From contig QPGO01000029.1 in NCBI GenBank assembly GCA_008632985.1, forward strand, positions 260,874 to 324,873: DNA of 64,000 nt, given 5' to 3'. The DNA is from Psammoneis japonica. Taxonomy: Eukaryota. Of the stretch, positions 268 through 50,649 are shown in pieces; within the stretch, counting starts at the first letter, position 1, and the number at the start of each line of letters is the position of its first letter. The notes beneath the pieces were generated by a model that did not search any database, was not told where the DNA came from, and saw only the letters and a list, made by a program, of their open reading frames with translations. Position numbers and translations under genes: made by a program.

Positions 268-279
268 AACCGAGAGAGC

Positions 280-16000: not shown

Positions 16001-19000
16001 CCATTGCCAAGGGCATTGAAGAATTCAAGCACACAGGCAATTGCAGGGACAACTTGTGCAACAATGGCTGGATTGCAGCAGTGGACCACAATGAAAGCAG
16101 CAACAAAAGAAACAGTGCAAGCAATGACAAACACAACAAAAACAACATTGCCAACAAAAAAGACTGTGAAGAAGAAGAAGAAGAAGTGGGAGCTTCCAGT
16201 GACAAATGTGGAGAAGCTCAAGATGTGTTGGCAGACAAAAAGCAGAGCCCAGATCAGCATCATGAGGATGACAATGACATGACCACAATGACCAAGACAA
16301 AAAGCATGAAGAACAAGAAGAACACAAAGACACATCACAGGACAGAAACAAGCAAGTGGAACAATGTGACCTGAAACAGACCAGAAGCAGCAGATCCTGC
16401 ACAGTGGTGACATGCCACAAGAAACATGAGGCTGCACAGAGAGAACCAAGAGCGCAATTCACAGGAGTGGCAGCAGACACCAAAGAAGAAAAATGGAAAC
16501 AGTTCAAAATTGAATGCTGCCATCATTTGTGGACAAATGCAAGCCTGAATCCAAAGAACAACATGCACTGCAATGCAGAATTGGAGTGGTGATTGCACAC
16601 TTCATGTGTGAGATCAATGACCAACTCTAATTGGGAGAGGACATTTCCTCAGCCCACAGCAACACCTGCCACCTGAGTGCCTGCCGCAAAGGCATTCAAC
16701 CCAAGGAGGCATGAGGCCTCAGAGAAAAAAGTTGGTCAACTGTGCAAGCAAGTGTGCTTTGTGCCAATGCAAGCCAAAGACATGACTCTGATTGAAAGAA
16801 AAAGATCTGTGACAGCTTTGATGTTCCTTGCAGAGAAACAAGATGGTCGAGTCAGAGGACGAATGGTTTGCACCAGTGGAAAACCAACAAGAGAATGGTT
16901 GGACAAAGATGAGTCAGCCAGCCCAACAGAATCATTGGAAGGAATCATGATGACAGCTGTTGTTGATGCCAAAGAAGAGCAAGACACAATGAGCCCCAAC
17001 ATGCCAGACATGTTCATGCAAATGATTGATGCCAGACCCCAAGGAGGGCAAAGAACAGATTGTGATGAAGATTGCAGGAGTGTTGGTCAACATGCTGGTG
17101 AGCAGTGATCCCAACCCATGTGGGCCACATGTGTTCCCAGAGAAGGAAAGAGAGAGTCCTCTGCACAAGAGACCATTGGAGCCATCTGTGGCATGTTGGT
17201 TGCAGCTCTGCTGTGGCATGAGCAACTCCACAAAGACCTGGAGAAAATTGGGTTTAAGTTCAACCCATGCAATCTGTGCATTGCCAATCGCACAGTCAAT
17301 GCAGCACACTGTCTGTTTCCACATGGATGACCTGCTGTCAAGCCACAAGAACTGCAAGGTTGATGACAAATTCCTGAGTTGGCTGAACAAGATGTGTGGG
17401 AGCCATGGCAAGGTCATTGCTGCTCAAGGGAAGAAGCACAACTGCCCAGGATGACCCCAGATTTTACCAAAAAGGCAAGGTGAAGGTCAACATGACCAAC
17501 TGTGCAAAGAAGATGGCAGACGAGTTTCCAGAGAAGCTTGAGAGCACGGATGCTGCCATGACACCAGCTGGGGAAAACTTGTTTGACACTGGTGGCACTA
17601 GATTGCCAGCCAAGAAAGCACATGTGTTCCATGAGTGGGTGGCCAAAGGGCTGTTTGTTTCCAGGAGAGGCCACATGGATGTGCGCTTCACTGCAATGCA
17701 TCATGTGTGCACGTGAGGGAACCTGCCAACAAGGGTTGGGGGAAGTCAGTCCATTGTGTCAAGTGTCTGAACTGGACACAAAACCAAGTTGCCACATTGA
17801 GCGCAGATCACCTCTGAGTTGTGAAGTGGTGCATGGAGACATTGCAGTGCACCCTGACTTCAAGAGCCACGCTGGAGGAGACCAATTTGCAATGGAGTGA
17901 TGCAGGCTGTGTCAAAGTGGCAGAAACTCAACACTGAAGCCGCACAGAGGCTGAACCAGTTGGAGTTGACAACGTGATAACTGTGATCTCATGGAGCAAG
18001 TTGTTCATAGAACACCAAGGTCATCCAATCAACAACAACATCCTGCACCAGGATGACAAGAGCACCATTCCACTGGAGACCAATGGGCACAGAAGTGCAG
18101 GCAAATGATCAAGAGGAGCACTCAACATTCAACATTTCTTTGTTGCCAATCAGATCAAGAAGGGCAACTTCAGAGTTCAATGACAGAAAAGATGCTTGCA
18201 GACTTGATGACCAAGCCATCACAGGGCAAGAAGTTCCACAAATTCAAGGGAGCCATTGTGGGCTGCTGAAGAGAAGGCAAGCATGAAGGACACACAAGCT
18301 GTTTGTGACATCAAACAAGAACTCTGATGCATGTGGCTGAAATTGGAGCAAGTCAGCACCCAAGAACCCAATTGTCTCACATGAGGTGTCCAGCATGAAG
18401 CAGTCTGCTGACCCTGGAGTTTGAGAAGGATGGAAAGATTGTCTGGACCTGCGCCCATGGCATGACAGACAAGTGTGCAAAAGAGCTTGAAGACAAGTGG
18501 CCCAAGCAGCAGGCAAAAGGGGTTTGATGCAATGTGCAATGTGTGCAAGGCCTGGAACAGATGGCCAGGTGAAGTTCATCAATGTGTGTCAACTGCTGCA
18601 CCAATGACCTCCATGTTCAAAAAGGGAAGTGTGAATTCACACAAGATGATGGAACAAGCAAAGGCAGCACACATGACCAAGGAGTGTCAGCACATTGTCA
18701 GGACAGGCACAACAATCCAAGGAACAAAATGTTGCAGGAGTGGCAACAATGTGGATTGTTTCAATGGATGCAATGAAGAAATGACAGTGAGGTCAAGAGG
18801 TGATGAAGGTCATGTTGTTGCCCTTGACAATGAAGACATTGGTCAACTGTGTGGGATCAGTCAACAGTGAGTTGTTCCACCTGCAGCTGTGGGATGACAC
18901 CAGGTGTGGTGCATGTGGGCCACTTGTGGAATGTGTTCCCAACCATCACAACAACATGACACATTGGTGGTTTGGTTTGGCAACAGATGACAGTGGAGTT

Positions 19001-19426
19001 GTCTGTGATGCCTTGAAGTTGGCATGCTTTTTTCAACAAGAAGCTGTGTTGAAGCAAAGCTGGTCAGAAGCGGGGCTGTTGTGATGTGGAGTTTTGCCTG
19101 TTGCTGCTCTGGAGAGTTGACAAATGGGTGGCAGAAGGAATTGACAAGATGGATGCAAAGGGGTTGTACAGCAAAGAAGCATGAGAGAAACTCTGTCTTG
19201 CCTGTGCAAAGAGTTTTGTCAACCAGGTGCATGGCATTGAAGATGAGTTTGATGTGATGCCACACTTCAAGGGCTGCAGATTGGGTCAAAGAACATTCAT
19301 GATGTGTGAGTTGCCATGTGATGACAACATTGCCATGCCAGATGAGTTGGGTGGGACTGCATTGAAGAATCTCTGATCACTGTTGTTGGGGAGGAAGATG
19401 GGTCATCAATGCAAGCAGCAGGAGTG

Positions 19427-19733
19427 TGCGGGAATGTTGAGATGAGAGACCCAGATGTCACACAATGTGACCCAGATGATTTGAGTGAGAAGGATGTGGA
19501 TCCTGACCTGGTCAATGGACATGACTTTCTTCAATGAGATCATGACCATCACCACATTCTTTGCACATGTTTTGTTCTCACTCTTTGGAGCAAATTGTTT
19601 GGCTTGCACAATTGTCAGTGTCAAGAGGCACCTGTTGTTTTGGCAGTTGCGCAGTTTGCATTGATGCCAAGGCACACCATGGCTGACACATGCCACCAAG
19701 GTGAGTGAAGTCAGTTGCTCAGGAGACCTCACA
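19427..19733 (+). repeat. 3' LTR of Copia-3
   Basis: TG...CA termini; aligns with 12777-13089. Confidence 0.8.
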
Positions 19734-19899
19734 GGATGCCCCCTTTGGGAGACATTGACTTCTGGCTCAACACTTGTCTTTCCACCCCTCCCCTCCATCT
19801 GATCAGCATCCATCTGGTGCCCCTTTTTTCTCCAGTCCTGCTTCTCCTGTGGTTTGGGTGTTGCCACACCATGAGCAGGGTGGGAAATTGCAGTGGCGG

Positions 19900-22800
19900 T
19901 CTGTCCAACAGCTTCTGGCTGTTGCCTGAATTTGGGTTTCCAAAGGGGAGCTGGTTTTCAAATGACCTTCAACATCGGCACATGTGCAGCACTCATTCTG
20001 CAGGAGGACTCTGCTTTGTGTGACCATTTGCAATGGTTCGGCAAGGACACCTGCACAAAATTTTTTCATTGCAAAACATGTGTGCAAAATGACAAATTTT
20101 CTCTTTTGTCAGGATTTGGCAGTTGTGGCTGGGGTGGCACATTGATTTGCTTTTGTTTTCCAAACCCGGCGATCTGGTTGGATGACATGGGTCACGGTTT
20201 TTTTCAGTCATTTTAGTGCTGATTTTCCCTGGTCTTGTGTGGATGATGTCATGCAATGGACAGGAACAACACATTGATTTGTTTGTGTCTGTGGTGCAAA
20301 TGTCAGATTCAATGGGTTTTTTGTCTTTTGCATCCTTCAGCGATGGGCGAGACGATGATTTCCTCAAATTTTCATCGTTTCTTTGTTTTCTTGATCTCAA
20401 AAAAGGCATTTCCTTTTTTCGTGTTCAATGTTGCAGTCAGCTGACATTTGCAGGAAGGTCATTTTCATTGCTTGACAAGGCTGGTCTCTCTTGTTTGGCA
20501 GGTTCTGTGTGACTCAAGGTCGCCAGGAAGAAGTCCTTGGGTGCTTCTGCATTGATCTTGTTTTGGTGAGCACAGTGCATCACTTTTTTGTTTTGCAGTG
20601 GCTTGTTGCAGTTTTGTTGGCTTGTTGTTGTCACAGCTTCCACAACACAAAGAGAGCTCTCTGAGCTCATGCTGAACACTTCATTTGACAATGCAGAGAA
20701 AGCCAGCACAACTTCATTCATGCAAATGAGCAGCATGACTGCATTTGTGACAATGATGAGATGAGTGTTCTGCAACTGGAAGATCAAGTTGCAGTTTTAG
20801 AGCACATCATCATTTGGATGTTGACAATCAATGTGATCTGGACTCAATGGGGCAGGATTGTTCAAGTCATTTTTGTCATTTGAAATGGATCAACCGGCGC
20901 AGATTCTAAAGATTGTTGAGACAGGTTGCAATGACAACAACAAAAATGCACAAACCAGAGTCATTTTGTGGGTTTTCACATTTGCACAACTGGTCCAAGA
21001 TGGATTTTTGTTTTTCCAATGGCTGCCATTTGACATGAGTCAACCACTCCTCCACCTTTTTTGTTGCAACTCTTGTCATCCAAGAATCAGGAGGACACAA
21101 TCTTTCAAAATCATTGTGCAGACGGATGTTGCCATGATGCTGTTTCAAAGAGAGTTGCACCCAATGACATGTGGCTCAGGGTCATTGGATTGGTCAATGT
21201 TGCAGCACATCACACTGTGATTCTCTGCCAAAATCAATGACCACAAAAGCTTCTTTAGGAATCTTGCATGGCACCACAACTGCCAACTCAAGTGCACTGA
21301 TGTTGTTCTCATCCACATGCACAAGTGTGCTGGTTTGGGAGGTCCAAATTTTTGTGTGGGACTGCAGGAGGGTCTTTTCACAAAGACACCATTGTGAATG
21401 TGATGGCTGTCTTGACTTGCATTCCTTCCTTCTCACACAAGGATTGATGCTCTTGGCACGCACAAGATCACTTCTTCATGTTCACTCATCTTTCAAGGTG
21501 CTGGCTTGAACATTTTTGAATTTGAAATTAAAGCAGGGAAAACCAATGGTGACATCTTGGATTTGATCTTGGGCGACATTCCCAAACACTGTGCAGAACA
21601 AGAAAGAAAGACTCAAAAGTCTCAACAAACCACCCCCCTGACAATTGTCATTTCAATGCCTCCATCCAACTGGATTTGAGACATTCTTGGATGCACCACT
21701 TCATTCTCCTGGTTTGTGACATCCAAGCAAAGCCTGTTCTTGCAGGTTGCTGACTCAGCAAAACCCACACCATGTCTCCAATTGCCACAAACTTTGTCTG
21801 GTTTTGAAAATGTGTGCAGAAATTTTAGCACGGCTTGCAGCATCATGAAATCACAAGACGCAAGGAACTTGTTTGAAGATTGTGAACATCTTTGTTTCCT
21901 GCCACCAACATTGACTCTGAAATGGCCAGAGTGAACAAACTCATTTCTCCTTTCTGTGGCAATGGCTCAGTCAAAACCAATGCTTTGCAAGGGCAATGGA
22001 CACCATGCATCTCATTTTCTCCTTTTGCAGCTGATCTTGCATTTTTGGCAATTCGTTCATGTTTGTCTTTGTCCTCTGCAACCACATCAACTCAGTTGAC
22101 AATGTTTGGTGCTTTCCTTCATTTTTTGAATGGCACTCCTTTTGCACTCATCAATTCTTTCCACAATGGAATGTTTTCTTTGCACACTTTGGTGTGTCCT
22201 TTTTGTTCTTTGATGCGGAATGACACATGGTCTTGTTTCGCAACTTGTGCTGTCTTTTTTCTTCTTCTTCTGCATTTCCAATTTTGCTTGACAGGGTGAT
22301 CTCCTCAAACTCCATGCTTTGTTTTCATGGTTGCAGATTCCATCCACAAACTGCAAGTGCTTTGACATTGTGCATTGGATGTGCAATTTGGAATGTGCGA
22401 TGCATTGAAAACGTGGCACTCCACACAATTTTTGGCCATTGTCTGTTGTGCTTGCAATTGGACAATGCAACAATGTGCCAGATTTCTCACAGCTTTGTGA
22501 CATGACCATGTTGTTTGCCATGAATTTTGTTGCTAAAATTGTGTGGTGTGGTGACACATCTTGCTTTTGTGTCATTTTGACATGACAAACATGCGAGTGA
22601 TCACCAGCACGCTGTTTTAGAGGATGTCTCACTGAAAAATTTGTGTGACATGTCAATGTGAACAAAACTCAAATCACACACATTTGACATTGTCTCCTCA
22701 AAATCTTGAGTCCTGTGTTCATTTTAACACAAGAGTCAAGTGATTGTGTCTTTTCAACTCTTTTCCACCAAAAATTGACACAGTCTTCTTGTGTTGAGAA

Positions 22801-25800
22801 TGTTGATTGAGAGCAGGTGTGAGCATCTTTCTCACATTGAGCTTTCCTCTTTGTTGTCACTTACATTGTTGCTCACATGTTGTTGAATGGCACCGGTGTG
22901 ACAATGGCTGAAGATTGACAATGACCGCAACATCAACAAATCTGACACCTGCGTCAAATCAGAGTCAACTGCTCCTTTTGAGCCCATTGTTGGCATGACA
23001 AGGAAGGAATCTTCAATTCAAACCCATCACTCAATTCATCGTCATCTGTTCTCAATTGCATCATCATCAAAGAAGGATCTAAAATGGGAGAAGCAATCCA
23101 TTTGGCAGAAAAAAAGACAAAGTGCATCCCGCTGATGGGGTCTCAGCGCTGACTGTGAATTGAAGTTGGGTCACATTTAAGAGGCAGATGAGCAGAGTGG
23201 CTGTGATTCACTTTTGGAATTCCCTTCTTGTTTGGATGGAGTTGTGCAAAAAAAAGAAGCAAACATGAAGAGCCAGCATGCTTGGACACTGTCATGTTGG
23301 AAGTGGAGCAGAGACACTGCGCTGCTTCTGAGAATTGGTTCAATCACAAGTGAAGCACATTTCCAGCAATGGCATTGACACTCACGTCATTTGACAAGTG
23401 GTTTTCACAGGTTTGTTGTTCATTGGCTTCATTCACGTGTGCATGGAGGAACTGAAGATGCTCATCCAGCTTGCTCTCATCAAGCTTTTTCAAAGTTTTT
23501 GGCGGATTGTCAGAAGGAACTGTCTTTTCTTTGTCTTGATCATCTCCCAAATTAATTTCTGGGCTCACATGTCCACAGTCAAGAACCTCAACAGGACACA
23601 GGCAAGTGCTGGGATGGAAGCACATGGCAGCTTAGTTTGGTTTTTCCTTCAACCAATTCTCAGTGAATCCTGTTCCATGAGTTGTCATGATCTTGACAAT
23701 GTCATCAACCAGAACAAACTGATTCAGGGAGTGTGTTTCTCCAGGCTGGGCACGCCAATTCAATTTGTTCATGTGACATTTGTTGTCCATGCAACCTTTG
23801 CTCATCTCAGCATTTAGAGTCATGGCAGACTGTTGTAAAATGCAACAATGTTTTGTTGGTTCATGATGCACTTGCATCAATTGAGAACATTGACACATTG
23901 TGACACTCTTCTCCAAAACAGCTGCTAAAACTGTCAACCAAAAATCTTCACCAATGTCCTGATTGGCAAAGATGAGTGGACATTTGCGCCCCCAATGCTT
24001 GCGGCTCTTCTCTTCCATGTCTGTGTTGCACTGCATGACATTGTTTGACAGATCTTTTCAACAACAACCGCTGTCCACAACGTTGAGTTCAACCAAGTCA
24101 TTTGCACAATTTTTTTTGGGTTTTGCACTGCTGCACTTGCTTGGGACCCTGGCTGCAAACACCATCACTGTCTTTTGCAAGACCAGCAGTGCATGGCCAA
24201 AACCCATTGTTTCTGGGATGTGCCCTGTTGTCTGCATGACCACAATTGCAACATTGACACATTCTCAGCAGACAGCTCACCTTTTTGGTCTGCAGGTCCC
24301 ATGACACACAAACCAGCTGCATTCTCTTGTGTCCTTGATGGCCTCTTGAGTTTTGTTTTTCTTGGGCAAAAGAAACATTGGCAGAGAAGAAGCACTTTTT
24401 TGTTCATTGGAAGATGAGCTCCTTTTTGCTCAACTTTAATTCCTTCCCACTCATTCTTGATTTACAAGCATTGCCATTGTTTTCTTGAGCAATCCTGGGT
24501 TTTGCAAACAAAAACATCAAAGAAAATGGCAACAATTTTGTTTGCGATTGTGGTGGCTGGGAATGAACAATTGCACATTGCAGCTCAGAAATTGAGCAGA
24601 AACCCAGAAATGTGACATTGCAGTTTTTAACACACATGTGTGGGTGTTGTTAAGATGACCACATTTTGCAACAGTGCAAAAGTGATTGTGATTCTGTCAT
24701 TTAATTGAGTTTTTAACTGCCACACATGTCATTTTAACCAACAACCAGTTTGGTTCAATCAACTTGCAGTGCAGTGCAGATTTTCTCCTTGGACATTGCT
24801 TTGAGACAAGTGCAACCTGTTTCTGCACACAACTCAAATTGAAACATCAAACTTCACATTTCAATTGAAAACTCCAATGACTGAAATGTCAGCTCCATGT
24901 GAAATGTCATTTGTGAGTGTCAAAATCATGGAGTCCTTGAGGAATGTCTCACGTGCATTGACAAAATTTGATGATCCCTTGCAATGGATTGTCTTTTGTC
25001 TTCAAAGGACTTTTCTTTCAGTTGAGCCCGGTTGCAGACAACACAAACTCAGACAACAAAAACTCACTTGGCAAAGATCGCACATTGAGCTGGTGCAATT
25101 TTCCCACTTTTCAGTTCAAGGACAAGCTTTGGTTTGCTTTTCAGAGTGACAAAGTGTTGCAACTGTTGCAGAAGCCATCTTTTTGCTGCCCAGACCTTTC
25201 ATTTGACAGAAACCCTGCCAGCTTTGGCTGGACTTGTCAAAGCTGTGGCAAACATGTTGCGCATGAGCTCCAATCTGAGTTTTTCCTTGCTTTTTGGATT
25301 TGCATTCTTTGCTTTGGAAACTTCTTGGATTTCATGGCAAAACTGCCTTTTCAAAGGTCATCAGATTCTTTCATGAGAGCGAGCTTGCATGCCAAGGTTT
25401 GGAAGGTGTTGCAATGATTGGAGCCACTTCACCCACAAAATTTGGGTGAGTTCTGGCATTGCATTCAGTGTGTTGGCAAGTTTTTGTTGTCTTTTGGGCT
25501 TGATGTCAATGCTTTTTCTTTGGTCACACTTGTGCCACTTTGAATTTTGATGTGACATCTGTGGTGCAACAACTGCAAATGCTGGGATGCAAACCTCTCT
25601 GATTTGCTGATGACATTTCAACCCTGCTGAATTGCCCGCCAACGCTGCATCTTGACAAAATGATGTGGTGATCTCTCATCCTCCTTGGGATTCAAACAGA
25701 CAATCAGCTTGTGCGCTTTGCACAAATGATGGTGAATTTGGAATCGGACGTCTGAACTTTCTTTGATTTCCTTTGACTGACTTGCCGCCATTTCACCCAA

Positions 25801-28700
25801 ACATGAAAACATTTTTTCTTCCTTGAGCATGAGTGTCCAGCATGGTTCTTGAGCAGTGCCACTCAAGATGGCCTTTTTCTTCACATTCATTGTCACATCT
25901 TCTGTCCAACCCAAGTTCTGTCTGCACTCTTCTCCCATTTTCAATTTGAGTTTGTCGGCAACAAAGCCCATGACAACATCATCTTCATTTGTCATCAACA
26001 CAGGATCTTTGACAACCAACTTAAAAAAACAAGCATGATGAGCTGTGCAATTGTGTTGTTGATCAACCACTTGTGCCAAAAACCAATGATGACATTTGAG
26101 AATGAGATGTCGCCAGTGTTTCTTGCTTGTGAAGCTCTCCAACTCTTGTTGCATCATGTGAATTGCAATGGTCACATTTGGACTTGAACTTGGTTGCTGC
26201 ATGAAAACACCTCAAATGTGCCACATTTTGGTGACTTCAAAGAAGCCAAATGCAACCAAATGTGTGCACTGTTGCCAATGCAACCATCACATTGCAGCAC
26301 AATCACTGCTCAACAATGAGTTGTTGTCGCCATTGCCACTCTTGTCTTCCAAATGTGGCTGAAACATTTCCTTGCCCTTTTCAATCAGACCATCCACTTC
26401 TGCAACTTTCTCTTGCTCCTCCTTGGTCGCAGATCCCACACTTTCTTCACAACTGGGAATTTTGCCATCACTCTTGCTTGAACTGTCCTCTTCATCCTCT
26501 TCCTCATCAACATGAGTTTTGGAAGTTGACACTCAGTGGTTTCAGTTGTGTGTCTTTTTTTTCTTGCAACCACTTTCATCGTCATCTTCCTCTGTTGGAC
26601 CAACTCCACTGGTGGCTGCATTTGCAAAACAAAAAAAGCACAACACAACAAGTGCCAACAAACAAACATGCACTCCACAATTTCCAAATTAAAGTGAGTG
26701 GACTTGCACTCCAAAAATGCTTGCATCCACTTGTGCGTGCACAACTTCTGCACTTGGCAGATTCTGCCACTTCATCACTGATGGGTTTGTCACCAACTCC
26801 AGCTGTGGCCTGGAGGAATTTCCAATGTCGCCAAATTGCAGCCATGACTGACAAGAATTGCACTCATGACCACTCTCTTCACTGTGTCTTGAGGCATCAT
26901 AACTGGCGCATTGAACCGCATTTGCACCGGACTCAACTTAAAATCACTTCCTCTAACTTGATTGCTGTCCCACACCCTGGCCTTCTTTGAACTTCACTTT
27001 TCATCTTCAAGCCTTTGTTGCTTGGTGCAATGCTTTTGCCTTGGGATGTGACTCCACAAAGTGCAATTTAAAAGTTTTGCAACAGCCATGTGTGAGCTGC
27101 TTCTGTGAGACTTCAAATGTTTTCTGAGTTTTGTCATCTTGCTTTCCATGTCCCCAAATGACTCAGAGATCATGATTTCAGTGCATCGTTGCAACCAACA
27201 AAAATTTAGAAAGTGACCCAAAGCCATGCAAAAAACATGAAACTCTCCTTTCTTCCTTGATGTCCTTTTGATTGTAAACAACAAAAAGAACAACTTAGAA
27301 AATGGCCAATTTTGCCATCTCTAATGTTTGACAAAAAACAGCTGAGTGACTCACCCAAAAGTGTTCGCTCCCTTTGGCACACCTGTCCATTGTTCTTCCA
27401 ATTTTGGAAAGTTCTGGCAATGTCCTTTGGAGTCACCATCAAAAAGCTTTGTGCCAATGAGCTTGCAAAAACAATGGGCCAGTTGCTGCATCTCTGGCCT
27501 CTCAAATTCATTCTTGCACAAGCAAGCAACGGCGGAACAACAACCAGATTACAAAGACACACAGATTGTCAAAATTCTTGAACCCAATTTTCACACTCAC
27601 CTCACAGTGAACAAATGAACTCTTTTCAAAGTGCAGCGGGTTGTTGCTGCCCTCAAAACCTTCTCAGCTGCTTTGACAACTCCTTTCTCAACATCTTTGA
27701 CTCCGTCTTTCCTCTCATGGCAGCTTGCAAGCATTTGTCAAATTTAGCAACATTTTCCATTGACACGCCAATGAAGCAGCTGTTGTCATCATTGGACAAT
27801 TGTTTGTTTGACAACTTTCCCAAATTTTCCACATCATCTGGGAACTTAGATGAAAACTCCAACAACTCTTGTTCAATTTCTGGAGTTGCAAGCAACTCAT
27901 CAAAACGTTCATTCAACTTGTTCAAACAAGCCACTCTTTCAGCCTGAGCCTCTCCTGACTCAGGTCCAGTCATTCTTGCATTCTTCTTCTCCTTCTTTCC
28001 TGCCTTCAAATCACTTTCCAAATCTTTCTCATTGAGCCCTTTCTCTTCATCTGATGTGACATCATCCTTTCCCTCAGCTTGACATGTGGTTGCATCTCTG
28101 GGCACCCCAAACAAATTTGATGTTCCAAACTTCTTTCCAACAAACCAGCCATGAAGATGACAATGTGCCCTGGATCCACTGACATGGGAGTGGCTGCAAT
28201 CTTGATTTCTCTGTTTCAGGATGATTGCTGGCCACAGGTGCATCCTGCATCTTCTTGTTTTTCTCCCCCTCCTTCAAACCATCCTCTTCTTGACTTTGAC
28301 CTTCATCTCCTCCTTGTTTGCATCATCTTCAACAGGAGCCACTGATGATGACTTGGCATTTTGCTTGTCCATGACATTTTGTTGTCCCATTGTGTGCTCT
28401 CAACTGAGTGCAACAAGCACCTGCACCGATGCTGTGCTTTCTGAAAAATGGTGCTGCAGCGAACAAATGACAAGAACCACCACTGCACCTGCACGCTGGC
28501 GCAGCGCAGTGGTCTGTTCTCATGTGACCAAACTGATCTTGTTAAAAGTTCCAAATGATCAGTTTCTTTTGTTGACATTCTCATCTTTGTGCTCCAACTG
28601 TCATTGCTCAACCCCAGCTGCTCCACAACAGAACATTGTTTGCCGTTCACCACATGAACACTTCAATGTTTTTCTGCAGCAAAGCAAAGAACATCTTGGA
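19900..28700 (-). pseudogene. Degenerate minus-strand coding relics of an unidentified large element
   Basis: Fragmented charged, protein-like frames (27653-28243, 26287-26532, 23344-23625) and weak Ulp1-like protease remnants near 20900-21330; saturated TA/CG loss prevents identification. Confidence 0.35.
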
Positions 28701-29630
28701 TGACTCTTTTTCTTTTTGAGTGAAACAGCAGATGCAAAATGATGCCATTAAATTTTGTCTTTGCAAACCAAACATCACACACAAATGACCGTTGAAAAAT
28801 GACGACGACCGCCCCTCCTCCCGAAGTGCAATTTTCCTTCATGTGCTTGTTGCTCTCACCCCACACATGTGCTGCACTGTCAAATGATGTGAGCCTGAAG
28901 CTGTGAACCCTTTCAGTTTTCAGAAAAAGGCCAAACCACAGCATGCAGCACAAAAAACATGCAGAATTCCATGGCAACACTTTGCCGTGTTGCAAATCAA
29001 AATCATGTGGTGAAAGCACAGTGAAAAGCATGAGGGGTGGAGAATGTCCACATGAGCAATGCAAGCAGTTTAATGTCACACAACTGTTGCTTGACACATG
29101 CAAAGGTCATGTGTCTCAAAACTGTCACCAGAGCAGAGATGTCAAATCAAAAATTTTGGGCGGCCCTTGTGTCACCATGGCAAAGTGCGGTGAAACGCTC
29201 GCCAAATTGCCACACAAATTGCTGGCACAATTGGCTGGAGATGCTTTGTGAGGCTCTAAATGACTGTCAAAGCAGATTCCCTTGGCATGAGATCATTGTC
29301 AAACAGGACCAGAAATGGGTTGTCTCTTTCCTTCATGCTTTTGCCGTGGTTTCCATTTTTTAACCACACGGTGAAGTGCGCACGTAATTTTGTGCCAAGC
29401 GCTGCAGCATGCTGTTGTTTTGTGGCAAGGGATTGTGCACTAAAGACCAAAGTCTGGGAATGCAGCAAATGGAAGATGGCTAGACTTGCAGTGCATTTTC
29501 CACATGAAAAAATGTCCAGGTTCTTGTCCACCGTCATGTGGAATTCTGAGTCACGAACAGTGATTCGTGGGCAACTGCAGTCTGAAATCTGTCCTTTTGA
29601 AGACGAAACAACACGGCAAAGCACGGGGCA

Positions 29631-29793
29631 CCATGGCGCCCTTTGGACGCCAATGTCTCAAAATCTGACAGGGGGCATGACCCGGTCTCAAGTGCATTTT
29701 CACTTGTCAGGCAATCTTGTGCTCACATGGCCATGAGACCGGGTCATGCCCCCCATTGGATTTTGAGACAATGGCGTCCAAAGAGCACCATGG
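29631..29793. repeat. 60-bp imperfect inverted repeat with 43-bp spacer (MITE-like or hairpin)
   Basis: 29631-29690 is the reverse complement of 29734-29793 with about 7 mismatches. Confidence 0.85.
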
Positions 29794-30276
29794 AGCTGAC
29801 GGTTTTTTGATGCTGTGATGTCAGCACTGATTTCCTCACAGGAATCCAGTGCAATCCCATGCAGAATTTCAAAAATCTCTTGGATGCACATCACACAAAT
29901 TTGCACCTCCCATTTGCTCAACAACGGTTGACGAAATCAACATTGCTGATTGCTGTTCATCTCAACAACCTTGCTCATTGTCAGTCAACGTGACGTCCAT
30001 TTAAGAAAATGCCAAAAAAGAGTGACCCTTCCAAAGCTGCAGCCTGCGCTGCCACACATCGCCTCTACACTGCACCAGCCACGGAAATTGAAAACCATTT
30101 TTGCAATTGACAGAAATGTGGTGGACACAACGAGCCACACCACATTGACTGCCAACGAGCCTTGGTCACATCTGCTGTTTTGAGAATGGAAACTCCAATG
30201 AAAGGAGGCAACTGCTCTGGCTTCAAAAACAATGAGCAGCCAACCAAGGCTTCACTGAAGAATTGGGATCCTCATC

Positions 30277-30537
30277 AAATTTTGCCAGTGCAAGTCTTGA
30301 GAGTTGCAAAGAGCGTGAAAGTTGCAAGAACCAGGTGCTGCAGCATCATTGTTGTTTGGCACAAGTTTTGTGCTACAAACAAGTTGCACTGCTGAGTGGC
30401 ACAAGCATCATGCCCACCAAATTTTGCCAGTGGTGCAATTCTCGTGAGTTGCAATGAGCAGGAAAATCACAAGAATTGCTGCACTGTCATTGTTGTTTGG
30501 CGCAAGTCATGTGCAGCGACCAAATTGTGCCAGCGCC
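30277..30537. repeat. Imperfect tandem duplication, unit about 140 bp
   Basis: Both units share AAATTTTGCCAGTG...GAGTTGCAA...TCATTGTTGTTTGGC.CAAGT. Confidence 0.6.
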
Positions 30538-31297
30538 GTTCTGTCATTTGTGCCATTGACAAATCTGTGGCAGCAACCCATTTCCAAGTGGAGAGAGACA
30601 GACACACCATTGGCTTTTTGCCTTTTCACAGCTGTCATCTTCAATGTGTGTGAGAGTGATGACGTTGTCACTTGTCACACAAAACAACACAAGACTCAAG
30701 ACTGTGGTGTGTGCGAGGCTTTGTGAGACTTTGATTGCATGTGCGGTGACCACGCAAGATGTTGCAAACACAGACATGCACAGAAGTCCACATGGCAAGG
30801 TGCGGTCTGTCCAACCTTGTGTTGCTCCCAGACTTTAGCGTTCCCTTGTTTGCGGACTGAACAATTTCTATCCTCAACTGTGCGAAGGCCCCCTTGTCTG
30901 CGCGGCGGGTGCACTCTGCCCGACCACTGTGCCAACTCACCCCAATTGTCTGACGGAATCTTTCTTTCGCTTTTCCCATCAGTTGGCCCCAATTTGAATC
31001 AAAATGCTCTTCTCCATCAATGATGTGCTTGTGTTTTCATTCAGTTTGAATTTCATTCAAAATCTTTGTTTGCGGTCACCTGTTGAATTTCTGCCTCTTG
31101 CCATCAACCCACACTTGCTCGATGCAACACAAACTGGAAAACAGCAGCTGTGGACAACTTGTCAGTTGTCGTGCTGGCAATTTCCACTTTGCCCCAACCT
31201 CAGCTGCCAAATCAAATGTCATCTCACCTTGCTTCTGTTTGTGCTTTGTGCCATTGGAGGTGGAGGCGATGCTTCCAAGCATTGCCGCCGCTTTGCA

Positions 31298-31573
31298 TGA
31301 CAGAAAATGAAGGCAAATGGCAAGAATTCAAACAACAACTCCTTGCTGCTGTCTAAATGGCAGATGAGTCTCCGCTCAGAGACCGTTGCAGGAGCCGAAA
31401 GACGCGCAAGTCGGCATGATCGGGCTGCTGTTGTCATTCTTGTGAGCCTTGTGGCTTGAAAGCAAACTACATCGCGCGTGAACGCGCGGAACCAAAGCAC
31501 ACAAAACTGTGCACGGTAAACTAAACAGCGCGCGACACTTCGCGCGCACCCAAATCCTGTTCAAATCCTGTCA
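31298..31573 (-). repeat. 3' LTR of Copia-2
   Basis: Ungapped direct repeat of 35573-35848. Confidence 0.95.
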
Positions 31574-34500
31574 CTCCCCAGTTTGCTTGAGGAGCCACAG
31601 AAACAGATTCGACTTCGGATGGAATGAAGTTCCAGAACATGAGGGGGCGGAGAAGGTCCCAGATTTGGGAGTGACCCCAATGCTTGCTGAGAATGTCAGC
31701 AGGGTTGCGGGAGCCTTCGATGAAGTGGAACTCAAGGCAACCAGAGGCAATTGCCTCACGCACACGGTGGAACGATAGTGCGGTGTGTCGCTTGTGTAAC
31801 TTGGAGTGCGGGATGGTGGCACTGTCTACAACCGACTTGTTGTCACCGAACATGTGACCAACATTACGGATCGGGACGCCAAGGCAGCGCAGGGTGATGC
31901 GCAGGTCGACAATCTGCTCAACACAAGTCCTTGCGGCAACAAATTCAGACCCGCAGGTCGCAGTCTCCACGGTGGCTTGTTTCTCAGAGAACCAATCAGC
32001 TGGGAATTTGTTGAGGAAGTGGAGCATTCCCATGACAGAGCGTCCGGTGAGCATGCAATGGTACAAGTTTGCATCGACGTAGTGGGTGGCAGTGACGAAC
32101 TTGCCAAGGGGCGGTGGAGCGTCCTTCGGGATCATCTCTTCTGCTTCGCCATACACGGAATGCATCCATTCATAGGCCGGAGCAGGGAGATCCGAACAGT
32201 CGGGCTCTTCCGTGCGAACGCGGAGAGCACCGTGTCGCATCTTGGAGAGGCACCCACAGACGCGTTTGGCACGGTCCAAGTGGCCTTGACGGGGCGCAGC
32301 TCGGAAGCTAGAGAGTGACATGACGGCCGTGGCAATGTCAATTCGACCAAGGGACACTGCCCATTGGAGTGAACCAACAAGAGACTGGAACTTGTGAATG
32401 CCATCGGGTCCCAGCAGTTCGGAAGTGTCCAGTTCGGGGTGGTCACCCTTCTCTAGAGGTGACAGGGCGTTGGTGGCAGGTTTCTCCCCAAACAGTCGGG
32501 CACAGCTGTCGACCATGCGCTCGATGTACTTGCGCGGAGACAGGCACAAGGTTCCGTCGGGTTCCCGGGAAAAGTCGCAACCCAGATGGAACTCAATGGG
32601 TCCCGCACCCTTGAGCTTGAACTTGTGATTTTTCGTGAGAGTGTCGACGAAAGATTGAGGGTCCTTCATGGCAATGGCGAGGTCATCCACATAAACGGCA
32701 ATGCATTCACAGTGGTCGCCGTTCCTGCGCATCCAAATGTCGGGTTCGGCGCGGCAGGGGAAGAAGCCTTCAGCTCGCAGGCAGTCGGCGAAGCGCTCGT
32801 GCCAGCGGAGACCGGAGCTGCGCAGTCCATGCAGTGCCTTGTGGATGACAAGGATGTGCCCTTCGAGTTTGCCGAACTCGGGTCCAGCTACAATGTAAAG
32901 CTTCTCCTTGGTGGTGGCTTCAAGGTAGGCATTGCCAATGTCGGTGGCCCATGTCTCCAACTCGTTGAGTTCGGCCAGGAAAATCATCAGCCGAAGGCCA
33001 CGGAGGGAGACTACTCCGGAGTGGACACTGTCGACAGGTACGTCCGTGAGGTGCCCGTCGGCTACGAGTCGTGCCTTGTGGCGACCGTCGTGTTTCACGT
33101 CGTGCGCTAGGTGCACTCGGATCTTCTTGTGTCCCGCAGGAGGAGTGGAAGACTTGAAGGGCCCGCAGTCATGGAAGACTTCGTATTCGTCGAGTTGGTC
33201 CATCTCGAGATTAGTTGCGTCTCCCCACTTGCGGTTGCCGTTGCGTTCGTCTAGTGACATGGCGTGTTTGTAGTTCCGGGGAACTTCGCATCCATGCTTG
33301 TAGCGAGGTGCAGTGCGGAAGGAGCGAAGCTTGGCTTGGTTGGCCATGCGAAATAGCTTCTTTTGGCGCCTCGCGATGGTGCGGAATCGCTTCCAGCCAT
33401 CCGTGTCGAGGAGTCCGTTCTCTCGTGCATAGATGGCACAGGTGACGGGGTCGTCCTTGGCGATGATGGCAAGAGGCTCGGACGTGATCTCCCCACTTTC
33501 CCATTCAAGCATGATGTTGTAGCTGGAGCCTTTCCAGGTTGGGTCGTGAGGCTTCAGAGGTCCTTCGTGCGACACGATGCGTCGAAATTTCCAAACAGTG
33601 GCATCTTCGTCTTCTTGCTCAATGTGATTCATGATGTCATTGTAGGCAAGGACTTCCTCGTATTCGTCATTGTTGACAGAGCAGACGAACTTAGTGAGCT
33701 CGGGATTGCCGTTCACTTTCCATTCGTGGTCTTCGACGGCCTTGACGATGCGAGCTCTGTGGCGTTGTCCATCCTCTTGTGGCTGCATGAGGAAGGTGCG
33801 TCCAATGATGTCTTGCGGATCGAAAACTGGCATCTTGGGTGTCCTGATCTCCCCATCAGGAGAGTCGACGGGGTTGTCGTCATGGCAAGATTTGATGATG
33901 GGTTCAGGTGGCTCCCCATCAGGAGGATCAAGACGCAGGTTTCGAACGGCAGGATCGGAGGTAGCGGAGCGGACGTTGGACCGGCAGAGGATCTTCTGAG
34001 TCTCGTCAGATAGAATCTTGAAGGTCATCTGGTGGCCGACGTGCTCAGCAATGCCAACGAAGCGTCCACGCAACTCACGGGATTCGGACGGCCAATCGGA
34101 GTCATCGAGGTGGAAGTAAACGGGTTCCCACCAATGAAAGCGAAGCAACGGGCTGATGTCCGGGGTGGAGCCAGTGAGAGTCTCGAGGGGCGTGCGCCAG
34201 TGGAGACGTGGGGACGCTGCATGGTTGAGTGTGAAGCACACGTGCATGAGCGCCAGCAGCCATGCATGGGCGGGCGAACCAAAACGATCCATGACAGTGT
34301 TCGCCATGCGCTTCACGGTCTGGTGTCGACGTTCGGCAAAGTTTTGGTGTTGCTGGTGAGGCTCACTTTGCCAGCTAGAGATGAAGAGGGCGCGTAGGAT
34401 CCCGAGCACTTTGTTGCTGATCTCAACTTGAGCATGGTCGCTAATGAGTTTGGATGGGGCACCACGTTCACGGATCTGATCCTCGAGTGTGTTGACAAAC

Positions 34501-35606
34501 TCTTTGTCCGTCTTAGTGCCGCAGACGTCAGTGACGGTAGACTCGGTGCCAACAAACAGTTGGGCGCTGGTGCAACCAGAGTCGACGGCCGGGGTGTCGG
34601 CACAAACGGTGTCAGTGGCGATGGGCTCGTTGCGGCGGTGCACATTAAGGGCGGGGTTGGGTGATTTGCAGGCCTTGCGAAGGTGTGTACCGGCGGGCAT
34701 GCGGGCGCACTGCGTGGTGCAGTCAAAAGTACGACGGACCGCATCGGCAGGTAAGAAGCCAAAGTGAGGCCGAAGAGACTCGAAGGGGGGGTCCTTGGGC
34801 TGCACAGTGCGCTCCGGAGGTGGAACGTCGTCGTCCTGGGGGCCAATCGCATGCAGATGACACTCGCAGAACACGTCGTCGTTCGGAATGAGGTGATCAT
34901 CGAGGGCGGACGCGTGATCGGCAGACAAGGAAGCGGACATGATGGTCTCGTTGACAACGACACGATGACGGCAGTTGCCGCATTCGTCAAACAGGTTGGC
35001 AGTGGGATCGTCCTGCAGGTCAGAGATCGCGTCGTGCCACTGGTCGTCGTCAGTGACAGAGTGATCGAGGACGGAAGGGTCCCATGTGTCATCACCGGTG
35101 AGGATGACATGGGGCAGGGTGTCCCATTCGGCGTCAGTGCAAGGTCGCATGGCAACATGAGGCAGGCCAGCCTTGGTGTCAATGGGGATGACACAGCCAT
35201 CAGGAGTGGCAATGCGTTGCAAGCCGTTGGGCACCTTGACAGAGCGATCGTTGACATCCTGTTTGTGCCATTCGAGCTGGCCGCAGGAATGGATGGTCTT
35301 GCCCTTGCCCGTGTGTGCGCACTGATGGAGGATGGCGATGACGGGACCACGCTGGGTCTCAACAACGGCACCAGCGGTGACAATGGGGATGTCCACCAAT
35401 TGATGATCGTCAATGCCCTGAACGTCGACTTGGTGAGAGGTGCGTGCAATGATGCGAACGTCGTCGCCAGCAATGCCGCCGTTGGCCCCACGATCGACTA
35501 GAGCACCAGTGCGTGTGGAGCGATGAGCAGAGGCAGAGCAAATGACATTGTGGTTGTTAACGCGGCGGCATCTGACAGAAAATGAAGGCAAATGGCAAGA
35601 ATTCAA
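31521..35606 (-). pseudogene. Copia pol (protease-integrase-RT-RNase H); open frame with many Tyr>Cys/His changes
   Basis: ALVDRGANGG, HQNFAERR, DVKHDGRHKARLVADG, TDIGNAYLEA, AVYVDDL, YVDANL, GDNKSVV, NPADILSKHW. Both ends of the called ORF lie inside LTRs, so its start and stop are not the natural ones. Confidence 0.92.
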
Positions 35607-35848
35607 ACAACAACTCCTTGCTGCTGTCTAAATGGCAGATGAGTCTCCGCTCAGAGACCGTTGCAGGAGCCGAAAGACGCGTAAGTCGGCACAATCGGGC
35701 TGCTGTCATTGTTCTTGTGAGCCTTGTGGCTCGAAAGCAAACTGCAACACGCGTGAACGCGCGGAACTAAAGCACACAAAACTGTGCACAGTAAACTAAA
35801 CAGCGCGCGATGCTTCGTGTGCACCTAAATCCTGTTCAAATCCTGTCA
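35573..35848 (-). repeat. 5' LTR of Copia-2
   Basis: Ungapped direct repeat of 31298-31573. Confidence 0.95.
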
Positions 35849-36067
35849 TTGCACAACAGCTCTCTTGCTCCCCATGATCGCGCTGCTTCCCCCACAATGA
35901 CGATGATGCCCCTGCTTGGCAAGATGTCTCTTCTGACCACCCATCAAGCTCACTCTCAAGGCCACTGCCAGTTGGTCCATCTCGGGCCTTGTGGCTTGTC
36001 ACAGCAACCTTCTTGCTTTTGACGCTCCTCTTCAAAAGAGCAACATCAACAGTTTGTTGCAGACCCA

Positions 36068-36493
36068 TTGCTCCCTGCCATTTCTCCCTCCCAAGTGCAG
36101 AGCCTCTTTAGTCTCTGGAATGATGCTCTCACCACACTTGACCCCAACACATTTGCCAAGCGCTGCGCCAAGAGGTTGGTGCTTTTGCCCATGGTTTTGG
36201 ACACACCCCACACCAACTGTGACTCAATCAAGTCATGCTTTGTGGATTTTTTGCAAAAGAAACCCCAGGGCATCATTCTCGAGTCCAATGTCATTCAGGG
36301 TGATGGCTGGTGCATGGATGCCGGCATTTGCCAATTTGCCGTTGGTGCCACTGGGGACAAGGTCAAGGCCCATTGCACGCATGTCTGCCAGTGCAAAGAT
36401 GGCAAATGGAAGATTGCCCACCACCGCTTCTCTGTCATGCCCAAAGCCTTCCTCCGCCAAGCATTGCGGCGCTGCAATGTGTGTGTGAAATGA
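36068..36493 (+). pseudogene. Mutated COG4875 / CaMKII-association-like (NTF2-fold) domain of iota carbonic anhydrase (LCIP63) type
   Basis: VQSLFSLWNDAL.TLDP, VLLP.V.DTP.T, FLQKKPQG.I.ES, DAGI..F, WKIAHHRFSVMP match the family pattern; the HHHSS motif is damaged and there is no Tyr. Confidence 0.8.
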
Positions 36494-37970
36494 AACAACA
36501 GGCACTCGCAAACTGCATGTCATTTGCAAGTGGTGTCTTTTGACATCCTTCCACAATGACTGGACTCTTTCTTTGTGCAATTGGAAACCACAGCACACCA
36601 ATCCTCATGCAGGAGGCAAAATGACTGTGTGAAAGAAAGCATGCACAATGGCACAGCCCATCATGACGCACTCTTCTTTTCCATTTTTCGTCTCGGGCCG
36701 GAACAAAAAAACAGAAGCCAACGTTGGAGCATTCAGAACCCAAGCTGTTGTTTGTTGTCTTGAAGCATCGCCAATTGACCAATTCTTGCTCATTGCAGTG
36801 TGAGAGATTGAATGGATCTAGCAGCATTTTTGAGTCCAGAAGGGATGCCACAGCAGCTCTCTTCCCAGGCAACAAACAAAAATCCGCCTCACTCATGGCT
36901 TGGCTGTCTGCGGCAGCCAGCGCTGACAAATCTGCTCTGCCGTCACAGCCAACAAAACCACAGCCCAAAGAGCACACATCAACTGGGCCAGCAACAGCAT
37001 GTCCGGTTGGCACTGGATCAACCAAAGAGCATGGATCAACTGGGCAAGCACAATCCTGTCCGGTTGGTGCCGGATGATGTGGAGCAGACTTGAGCCCACC
37101 CAACTCAGAAATGGCACCCACAGAGGACCACAATGACATGAGCAGGCGGTGGCTTTTTCAAGCCAGCATTGTGCAGAGCAGCAAACTGGAGGGACATGGC
37201 AGCATGACAAGAACAAGGAACCGGCCGGCAATGTCAGAGAAATGAAAAAACGATTCTCTGAGAAAAAGCGTGGGTGCAGAAAGGAAAAACCAACGCCGCG
37301 CTTGCACTTGTGGCACACGATCAATTGTCAAGTGAAAGAATGTCCCTGCAAGAGGTTTGGTTTGCTTGCACTTCGACAAGCACACCAACAGCAAGCAAAG
37401 TGCAAAAATGAGGAGCGAGTGCAAGCAATGAGCGTGTTTCAGCAAAAAGCGAGTCACGAGAAAAGACTTGCAGTGACACAAGCAACAAAAAACATCTTGC
37501 CGACAGGAACACATGAGCATTGGATCGAAATGTCCACACGTGATTGTTGGATGGGCGACGCAAAAGAAGAACACATGGTCGCATGCGGTTTTCGTGAGAT
37601 TCTGAACGGTTTCGTCCGATGCGAAAAATTGAAAACGACGGTTGGAATGCGAATGAACATGCCGTGTGCAGATGACGGTTGAACATTTTTATGATCTTAT
37701 CCGTAAAAAGGTGAACAGAACCAAAAGAAGTTCCGTCAGACAGTTCTGTAGGGAGAGAGCGATTGACGGGCAGTGTACACCCGTGTCACCGACATGGGTG
37801 ACATAGTACAGGTGGGGAGGTAGGAAATAACTGGCAATAATCAACAAATGGTACGTACTGTAACAACGAATGGCGTCTCTTTGAACGGCAATCGCAAACG
37901 CGTCGGTGCAACTAAACTAGTGACTTCCATGGGAACGTCAGAAAACTCCTAAATCTGATCCAAATTCGAC

Positions 37971-50632: not shown

Positions 50633-50649
50633 TGAAGTTAGTTCTTTTG

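Follow-up and report, generated by a model that had tools for sequence, protein, structure and literature searches.

Introduction

In the chlorarachniophyte alga Bigelowiella natans, two integrated viral regions mutate at approximately 6e-7 per site per generation (10.64898/2026.01.13.699255), and 230 of the 231 mutations in these regions were A>G or T>C, all of these on TpA (Mettrop et al., bioRxiv 2026, 10.64898/2026.01.13.699255). According to that preprint, low-TpA coding sequences of B. natans are enriched for reverse transcriptase (RT) and DDE domains, and adenine deamination, with an ADAT2-like candidate enzyme, is proposed as the cause but not proven (10.64898/2026.01.13.699255). In the literature found so far, TpA-specific hypermutation has been reported only in this one unrelated alga; our literature search yielded nothing on a loss of TpA from transposons of diatoms, and an apparent "TpA" match in PMC4504042 is the word "Tpase". 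Here, we describe a footprint of the same kind in a stretch of 64,000 nucleotides from Psammoneis japonica (assembly GCA_008632985.1, contig QPGO01000029.1, positions 260,874 to 324,873 of the forward strand), which is referred to as the window and by whose positions all features are given. The main subject is Copia-2, a long terminal repeat (LTR) retrotransposon at 31298–35848, together with a second copia element, Copia-1, at 25–6949.

The footprint resembles that of B. natans in that the change is nearly exclusively T:A>C:G at TpA, with TpG or CpA as the product depending on the strand, and in that foreign or presumably silent DNA is hit, with depletion of TpA and gain of CpA and TpG; the gene blocks of the window retain observed/expected ratios (O/E) of 0.44–0.72 for TA and of about 1 for CG. 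On the other hand, B. natans belongs to the Rhizaria, whereas the host here is most likely a diatom, a stramenopile; rates in B. natans come from mutation accumulation, whereas only an accumulated footprint is read here; and the described targets in B. natans are integrated viral DNA, whereas LTR retrotransposons and whole inter-genic domains are affected here. The erosion in the window has proceeded to a TA O/E of 0.00–0.05, compared with 0.45 in a nucleocytoplasmic large DNA virus (NCLDV) region of B. natans. Further, TA loss is accompanied here by a slower decay of CpG, whereas the B. natans preprint makes no mention of CpG, diatoms, or retrotransposons.

Fungal repeat-induced point mutation (RIP) likewise destroys transposons after their insertion by context-specific transitions at the DNA level, leaving a dinucleotide footprint (PMC2621366, PMC7296669). 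Its direction as described in these sources is, however, the opposite: RIP changes C to T mainly at CpA and thereby makes TpA, whereas here TpA is destroyed and CpA and TpG are made. RIP, as described there, also needs duplicated sequence, whereas the two LTRs of Copia-1 differ 8:0 by position. Diatoms carry DNMT4 enzymes related to fungal RID, the function of which is given as unknown (PMC9998398), and diatom transposons are described as CpG-methylated (PMC2806351, PMC9998398). The footprint includes a slow CG>TG/CA component like the CpG decay of methylated transposons, and many relatives of Copia-2 show this component alone; unlike CpG decay, it also includes T:A>C:G, and CG loss in P. japonica lags behind TA loss and is not dominant. 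The APOBEC and ADAR footprints in LTR retroelements are a further case of deaminase-type, context-dependent hypermutation, but these enzymes, as the source describes them, act before integration and strand-specifically and leave identical changes in both LTRs (PMC4866542), whereas in the window one LTR is unlike the other, and flanking DNA is affected as well.

Taken together, the data presented below make it highly probable that the DNA of Copia-2 was altered after integration, within a confined domain, by a fast process of TpA>CpA/TpG plus a slow process of CpG>TpG/CpA.

Structure of Copia-2

Copia-2 is a dead, 5'-deleted, and non-autonomous Ty1/copia-type LTR retrotransposon on the minus strand. 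It consists of, or is bordered by, the following features.

31293..31297: left copy of the target-site duplication TTGCA, read from the sequence, identical to the five bases beyond the other LTR
31298..31573, minus strand: 3' LTR of 276 bp, TG...CA on the forward strand, 93.5% identical to 35573–35848
31574..31584, minus strand: candidate polypurine tract, AAACTGGGGAG on the minus strand, abutting the 3' LTR and proposed from its purine-rich composition and its position only
31629..35579, minus strand: pol-like coding remnant with RVT_2, aligned to positions 549–1857 of a profile of 60 full-length relatives
35570..35572, minus strand: junction where Copia-2 departs from other copies of its family, at profile start 549, with loose contig ends on both sides of 35570
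35573..35848, minus strand: 5' LTR of 276 bp, from the alignment of the LTR pair
35849..35853: right copy of the target-site duplication TTGCA, read from the sequence

The open reading frame (ORF) at 31521–35627 on the minus strand encodes 1368 aa, and the Pfam domain RVT_2, the copia-type RT, was recognized in it with an E-value of 5.5e-27 and 95.4 bits against a cutoff of 31.6. The direct LTRs of the TG...CA type, the 5-bp target duplication, and RVT_2 are all features of Ty1/copia elements. A Pfam search for the integrase that copia elements carry upstream of the RT gave no match in Copia-2, and none at E up to 1 in P0001, an intact relative. Over positions 549–1857 of the full-length relatives, the ORF runs collinear with them. 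Because this alignment begins at 549, at the inner edge of the 5' LTR, and because other copies run into different sequence on both sides of 35570, with loose ends in up to 19 contigs from the sequencing reads (run X1), Copia-2 was classified as a non-autonomous deleted derivative. The missing 5' internal part comprises the primer-binding site and approximately 548 profile positions, which would presumably have held gag.

A database search in which 8000 candidates were scored returned 951 proteins related to Copia-2 (E up to 0.001). Of these, the best 120 are 54–67% identical to it and mostly about 1850–1900 aa in length, and 60 of them were used to build the profile. No further DNA copy of Copia-2 or of its LTR was found in the 64-kb window.

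TA Is Lost Faster than CG at Conserved Codons

The two LTRs of an element cannot polarize their own differences, and a reciprocal CA/TG doublet between them may derive from either TA or CG; the relatives were therefore used as an outgroup. For Copia-2, we analyzed the 652 columns at which at least 80% of the 60 relatives agree, and made use of the fact that a change of the codon TAY to TGY or CAY is exactly a TA>TG or TA>CA change. At 32 columns with a conserved Tyr, Copia-2 has Tyr 12 times, Cys 12 times, His 6 times, and Phe twice, and at 51 columns with a conserved Arg it has Arg 49 times (47 as CGN) and His twice. TA was lost in 18 of the 30 Tyr/Cys/His outcomes, compared with the loss of 2 of 49 CGN Arg codons (Fisher p 3.9e-8). 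The 64 changes of Copia-2 at conserved columns were composed of 24 TA>TG/CA, 5 CG>CA/TG, 5 other transitions, 14 transversions, and 16 multi-step changes.

Copia-1 belongs to a different family, with 23–24% identity to Copia-2 in the RT, and was analyzed with 50 relatives of its own. Only 3 of its 24 conserved Tyr columns were kept, the others having become Cys (12), His (4), Phe (3), Trp (1), or Val (1), and at 34 conserved Arg columns 31 were kept (24 as CGN), with one change each to His, Trp, and Gly. The resulting losses were 16 of 19 for TA versus 2 of 26 for CGN Arg (p 1.9e-7). A first-pass annotation of this DNA, made from the sequence alone, had proposed that a TA process runs faster than CG loss and that a second copia element replicates it independently. 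Both proposals were supported, since the excess of TA over CG loss was found in Copia-2 and Copia-1 alike; a CG loss equal to or greater than TA loss in young copies, the outcome that the annotation had named as contrary to its claim, was found in neither element.

The replacements are visible in six pol peptide words quoted in the same annotation, all of which were located in the minus-strand ORF at 31521–35627, each at a Tyr conserved among the 60 relatives.

31872..31892, minus strand: LRCLGVP, where relatives have LRYLGVP (Tyr>Cys; 60-relative alignment)
31941..31967, minus strand: ETATCGSEF, where relatives have ETATYGSEF (Tyr>Cys; 60-relative alignment)
32682..32714, minus strand: HCECIAVYVDD, where relatives have IYEYIAVYVDD (two Tyr>Cys, TA>TG; 60-relative alignment)
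32823..32840, minus strand: KALHGL, where relatives have KALYGL (TA>CA; Tyr in 100% of the 60 relatives)
33009..33029, minus strand: SVHSGVV, where relatives have SVYSGVV (Tyr>His; 60-relative alignment)
34311..34334, minus strand: ERRHQTVK, where relatives have ERRYQTVK (Tyr>His; Tyr in only 60% of relatives)

The composition of the proteins was also compared. The Copia-2 protein contains 1.2% Tyr, 5.3% His, and 3.0% Cys, and that of Copia-1 contains 0.6%, 4.4%, and 3.5%, respectively. Among the 120 relatives of Copia-2, Tyr has a median of 3.85% (minimum 2.86), His reaches at most 4.6%, and Cys has a median of 0.92% (maximum 1.28); the host proteins of the window contain 1.8–3.9% Tyr, as against the values of the two elements.

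Differences between the LTRs of Copia-2 and the Timing of the Changes

The two LTRs of Copia-2 differ at 18 columns, made up of four single TA-versus-CA/TG sites, four reciprocal CA/TG doublets, five CG-versus-TG/CA sites, and one transversion; this column-by-column recount agreed with the tally of the first-pass annotation, which had given about five CG sites and otherwise the same numbers. Pyrimidine-purine (YpR) dinucleotides hold 17 of the 18 differing columns, and the column tally of the 276-bp pair contained no other (non-YpR) transition. The LTRs have 3 TA and 16 CG in common. When the columns were shuffled 2000 times, reciprocal doublets numbered 0.13 on average and never more than 2, as against the four observed. 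Approximately 25 CG sites with a loss of 0.04–0.12 per lineage should yield no more than about 0.2 such doublets, whereas a TA loss near 0.55 predicts about 2. Because the rates derived from the ORF leave too few CG-derived doublets, their reconstruction as former TA, which the annotation had suggested, is the better reading.

When the doublets are assigned to TA, the losses in the LTRs of Copia-2 are 12 of 22 lineage-sites for TA and 5 of 42 for CG, and pooling with the LTRs of Copia-1 gives 20 of 42 versus 7 of 68 (p 2e-5). The estimates of loss in Copia-2 from its LTRs, from its codons (18/30 for TA and 2/49 for CG), and from composition (O/E of 0.23 for TA and 0.95 for CG) agree with one another. 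Expressed as log-survival, the losses of about 0.8–0.9 for TA and 0.04–0.13 for CG correspond to a rate ratio of roughly 6–20 in Copia-2, and the per-site loss of TA is overall roughly 5–20 times that of CG.

When a retrotransposon inserts, its two LTRs derive from the same stretches of template. Differences between the LTRs therefore arose in the chromosome, and the process acts on DNA after integration, as is indicated by the near restriction of the Copia-2 differences to hypermutable sites and by an older pair of repeats described below. Changes made before integration would be common to both LTRs and lie on one strand, whereas the LTRs of Copia-2 differ at 17 hypermutable columns; moreover, both TA>TG and TA>CA occur in Copia-2, and flanking DNA is affected too. 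The older pair of repeats consists of two arms.

12781..13131, forward strand: left arm (old LTR-like pair with 77% identity between its arms and no TA in common)
19431..19772, forward strand: right arm of this pair

The two arms have 0 TA and 1 CG in common. They differ by 18 reciprocal CA/TG doublets, the next commonest type of adjacent double mismatch occurring 4 times, and a shuffle script, which counted 19 doublets, obtained 1.3 on average and no more than 6 in any of 2000 shuffles. Ancestral TA and CG sites were resolved in each arm independently of the other. The arms are probably the two ends of a decayed element about 7 kb in length, and weak copia-RT tblastn matches were found between the arms in three places (16779–17276, E 3e-4 to 4e-3). 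No target duplication of the pair could be established from the flanking sequence. A copia-like C-terminal peptide near 18.18–18.27 kb was noticed by eye only and was set aside, as no search supports it.

TA Disappears before CG within Sharply Bounded Domains

The O/E of the whole window was 0.25 for TA, 0.61 for CG, 1.48 for CA, and 1.49 for TG. Its parts were composed as follows.

Copia-2 ORF: TA O/E 0.23, CG O/E 0.95
Copia-1: TA O/E about 0.2, CG O/E 0.87–0.97
Relic blocks, 12–28 kb and 52–58 kb: TA O/E 0.01–0.09, CG O/E 0.04–0.22, CA and TG near 2
Relic-block edges: TA O/E 0.05–0.10, CG O/E 0.35–0.6
Gene blocks: TA O/E 0.44–0.72, CG O/E 0.81–1.08

The dinucleotide ratios confirmed an earlier statement that Copia-1 and Copia-2 are CG-rich yet TA-poor, whereas the relics lack both. 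TA depletion was arranged in two domains.

10501..37500: TA-depleted domain holding Copia-2, with borders within single 500-bp bins
48501..58000: second TA-depleted domain, along which CG O/E drops from 0.85 to about 0.05

Near 10.5–11, 37.5, 48.5, and 58.0 kb, the TA O/E steps from at most 0.1 to 0.4–0.9 within one 500-bp bin, and these borders lie near gene ends. The bins immediately beyond the borders of the domain with Copia-2 have TA O/E of 0.43–0.75. Inside the domains, the TA O/E is 0.00–0.1, and those of CA and TG are mostly 1.5–2.3.

To determine the order of loss, the window was divided into 128 bins of 500 bp, and an O/E of 0.15 was used as the threshold. None of the 39 CG-poor bins (<0.15) had a TA O/E of at least 0.15, whereas 26 of the 65 TA-poor bins (<0.15) still had a CG O/E of at least 0.15. 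Intermediate bins, at 28.5–31.5, 36–37.5, and 49.5–50.5 kb, had TA O/E of 0.00–0.16 and CG O/E of 0.26–0.66. Across the window, TA disappears before CG. The bins that are free of TA and have half of their CG give a rate ratio of about 4, on the assumption of a starting O/E of approximately 0.7 for TA and 1.0 for CG.

The domain that holds Copia-2 also contains a frame resembling a known protein family.

36023..36490, forward strand: CaMKII_AD/SnoaL-like open frame in the TA-free domain (E 1.8e-9), whose 156 aa include 10 Cys and 6 His but no Tyr

This frame is a probable pseudogene, of a host-type gene or a passenger, eroded by the TA process. Because it has no Tyr, the TA process is not limited to the element itself. 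The relic blocks themselves may be old transposons, as is weakly suggested by the 77%-identical LTR-like pair and the three tblastn places between its arms; in all, tblastn with 240 transposon proteins found only five weak places (E 3e-4 to 7e-3) in the relic blocks. Open frames of at least 110 aa in the six reading frames numbered 101 in 9500–31300, 35850–38600, and 47000–58700, most of which is TA-free relic DNA and the rest flanks; such frames are abundant because TAA and TAG vanish with TA, leaving only TGA as a stop.

A separate observation concerns the block at 48300–51000 at the start of the second domain. It is without a Pfam match and has a strongly negative GC skew (down to -0.41), and TA and then CG fall stepwise in it.

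The LTRs of Copia-1 Differ by Position

The two LTRs of Copia-1 lie at different distances from a gene of the UCH domain family.

25..258, minus strand: distal Copia-1 LTR, with derived CA/TG at 8 of 8 single-site differences
6716..6949, minus strand: gene-side Copia-1 LTR, 190 bp from the ORF start of the UCH gene (7139), keeping TA at 6 of 6 and CG at 2 of 2 sites

At all eight sites, the gene-side copy is ancestral and the distal copy derived, and this asymmetry of 8:0 (binomial p 0.008) suggests that the gene-side LTR was protected near an active gene. Since two initially identical LTRs fared differently by position, an effect of location or chromatin, rather than of homology alone, is indicated.

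Relatives of Copia-2 Elsewhere Lose CG without Losing TA

We compared Copia-2 with 80 related copia loci from metagenome contigs (81 loci with Copia-2 included), using P0001 as the reference for codon counts. The median O/E of the 80 loci was 0.64 for TA and 0.78 for CG, TA was at least 0.40 in 78 of them, and CG was about 1.0–1.2 in the CG-rich relatives. Many relatives had a CG O/E of 0.07–0.25 with a TA O/E of 0.47–0.69; L008 (TA 0.61, CG 0.07), L031 (0.69, 0.15), and L026 (0.47, 0.17) are examples, and L052 and L065 were also CG-depleted with normal TA, the CG O/E of these five loci being 0.07–0.22, as in ordinary CpG decay. In L026, Arg had changed to Cys, His, Gln, Trp, or a stop at 37 of 101 sites and Tyr to Cys or His at 0 of 59. 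CpG decay without TA loss is common in the relatives elsewhere.

Only two of the 80 loci were poor in TA, namely L025 (TA 0.01, CG 0.47) and L020 (TA 0.24, CG 0.82). L025 (L025:5-2590) had Cys or His at 20 of 35 reference tyrosines, with one Tyr kept, and thus bears the same TA-first signature. The fraction of Tyr changed to Cys or His had a median of 0.032 over the 81 loci and was 28/54 in Copia-2. TA-first decay is particular to the P. japonica genome and at least one other source, that of L025. Because deamination of cytosine cannot give T:A>C:G, and because relatives such as L026 decay at CG alone, the two processes are distinct; the claim of the first-pass annotation that the TA process is separate from 5-methylcytosine deamination was in this way upheld.

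Reality of the Sequence and Copy Number of the Family

The reads used here come from one study and one sample (run X1). Contigs of exact words from this run, at a word depth of about 55–70, matched the TA- and CG-free relic DNA, for example over 578 bp without a deviating letter and over 649 bp with a single one, which argues against an artefact of long-read base calling. The Copia-2 family had a summed word depth of 70,000–140,000, compared with about 100 in the flanking relic DNA (31007–36342; 9776 contig pieces). Over this stretch, 824 variant places were found among the copies of the family, and 85% of the variants were transitions (A>G 182, C>T 179, G>A 155, and T>C 180, with 122 transversions). 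At position 31985, Copia-2 reads CA, whereas TA accounts for about 90% of the depth of the family, and since it departs there from such a majority, Copia-2 has not been polished to the family consensus.

In the relic DNA at 21654–21783, the assembly and one X1 contig with a depth of about 40 disagree at clustered sites, among them three CA-to-TG doublets; the contig may represent a diverged allele or a paralogue.

Proposed Mechanism and Alternative Explanations

We propose that a fast process of TpA>CpA/TpG, that is, T:A to C:G, has removed about 55–65% of the TA sites of Copia-2, while a slow process of CpG>TpG/CpA has removed about 4–12% of its CG sites, both ending at CA/TG. The fast process is limited to sharply bounded, gene-free, and presumably silenced domains, runs to completion in older DNA, and is absent from most of the related elements in other hosts. 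Its direction, its timing after integration, its rate relative to CG loss, its confinement to domains, and its separability from CG loss are shown by the data above. For its chemistry, we tentatively favor enzymatic deamination of adenine in 5'-TA-3' to inosine, which would be read as G at the next replication. The loss of CG is likely to reflect deamination of 5-methylcytosine in methylated transposons, which is the simplest explanation because diatom transposons are described as CpG-methylated in the sources cited above. We infer that targeting follows the chromatin state and that the TA process serves genome defence.

Two alternatives concern the chemistry of a process acting on chromosomal DNA. 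According to an explanation by biased repair, which we regard as improbable, a G/T-mismatch glycosylase or a short-patch system working in methylated DNA would resolve G.T to G:C, protecting CpG and turning TpA into CpA/TpG as a side effect; very-short-patch repair, which depletes CTAG in E. coli, offers an analogy. Such repair would cover both the slow CG loss and the fast TA loss in the same domains and would fit the strand symmetry seen in the inconsistent Cys:His ratios, and the data do not distinguish damage on A from damage on T. It demands, however, a very high supply of G.T at TpA only, in a 276-bp LTR pair without other transitions, and relatives in other hosts lose much CG without TA loss, so that methylated copia DNA is not generally affected. 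A modified thymine, made by TET/JBP-type oxidation of T in TpA to 5-hydroxymethyl- or 5-formyl-uracil, would likewise produce T>C, since these bases mispair with G. A T:A>C:G change at the palindromic TpA fits a lesion on either base, and confinement to domains fits an epigenetic mark. Even so, we consider a modified thymine quite improbable, as no evidence for such a base or enzyme in P. japonica was available, and as the authors of the B. natans preprint favor adenine deamination and name the ADAT2-like candidate (10.64898/2026.01.13.699255).

The remaining alternatives would place the cause outside the chromosome or deny it altogether. ADAR-like editing of RNA at UA, or editing of cDNA, fixed by reverse transcription, would suit a family as active or abundant as that of Copia-2 appears to be, and the pooled conserved-column tests, in which TA>TG exceeded TA>CA on the sense strand (Cys:His 24:10, p 0.024), pointed in the same direction. 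With another reference (17:11) and in L025 (8:12), this bias did not recur, and both strands are affected. Further, the LTRs of Copia-2 differ at 17 hypermutable columns and the old pair by 18 doublets despite their common templates, and flanking non-element DNA and the pseudogene are also free of TA; editing before integration as the sole cause is contradicted by these LTR differences and TA-free flanks and is very improbable. It is hardly credible, finally, that no hypermutation took place and that the family is simply poor in TA through codon usage, or that modified DNA was misread in base calling or assembly. TA is indeed under-represented in most coding DNA, including the gene blocks of the window (0.44–0.72), and a high copy number makes polishing errors conceivable. 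Against this stand the TA O/E of at least 0.40 in 78 of 80 relatives, the conserved-column test and the peptide words, in which Copia-2 has other residues in place of invariant Tyr in its RT and RNase H motifs, the differences between its two LTRs, the exact-word contigs that reproduce the relic DNA, and position 31985, which is unlike the family majority.

Several points weigh against the two-process explanation proposed above. The evidence is an accumulated footprint, and it comes from one window and two young elements with small LTR counts. When all reciprocal doublets are assigned to CG, the pooled LTR losses become 10 of 32 for TA versus 17 of 78 for CG (p 0.33), and the direction at the four single TA/CA sites of the Copia-2 LTRs was taken from the ORF and not from an outgroup LTR; the LTR pairs alone are not decisive on the rates of TA and CG loss. 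The sense-strand bias toward TA>TG was dropped as evidence for mechanism, given the ratios just cited. As to the relic blocks, a search with two copia family profiles found nothing in them (best independent E-value, i-E, 0.055), and none of the 101 open frames of the relic blocks and flanks contained a transposon domain by Pfam. The reads of run X1 are possibly the source of the assembly itself, in which case their confirmation is not independent, and assembly or polishing could have mixed copies of this high-copy family. The host, lastly, is most likely a pennate diatom, but this assignment depends on named homologues at only 44–51% identity: the named relatives of the ESF1-like protein of the window are all from pennate diatoms (Fragilaria, Nitzschia, Cylindrotheca, and Pseudo-nitzschia). 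One relative of Copia-1 is also named from Fragilaria, and the long intron-free ORFs of the window encode housekeeping domains of eukaryotes, namely UCH, ESF1 RRM, RWD/Prp3, and plastid-lineage DUF1995.

Implications

If the host assignment holds, this would be a second case, from a phylogenetically distant lineage, in which foreign DNA is hypermutated specifically at TpA, and the first on LTR retrotransposons in which the timing after integration, the rate relative to CpG decay, and the domain borders can be read from sequence. Compared with the account of B. natans, it would add a new host lineage, timing by LTR pairs, the ordering relative to CpG decay, and erosion to completion. In that case, the spread of an editing-type genome defence among marine protists would become testable, since its footprint can be screened for in any assembly, as a TA O/E close to 0 while CG persists, a replacement of invariant Tyr by Cys or His, and CA/TG doublets that are reciprocal between the two LTRs of an element. 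It is conceivable, although we think it rather unlikely, that diatoms and chlorarachniophytes share an old, chromatin-guided, adenine-deaminating TpA defence across the lineages of stramenopiles, alveolates, and Rhizaria (SAR), which would rewrite silenced domains into CA/TG-saturated DNA that can encode neither Tyr nor TAA or TAG. In a bolder form of the same idea, one ADAT2-like deaminase of dual specificity would make both the TpA and the CpG changes.

There are also practical consequences. Dating by LTR divergence fails in the P. japonica genome, as 17 of the 18 differing columns of the Copia-2 LTRs are hypermutable. Nor does an open frame indicate an active element or a gene here, because TA>CA/TG creates no stop and removes TAA and TAG. 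Homology searches miss old copies.

A minor observation concerns the TA sites that survive in the two young elements (25–6949 and 31298–35848). TAT makes up 9.5% of them, compared with 24.5% in the gene blocks, a shortage that may reflect an extended context preference and is confounded by the different starting composition; the surviving sites are, in addition, rich in TAG.

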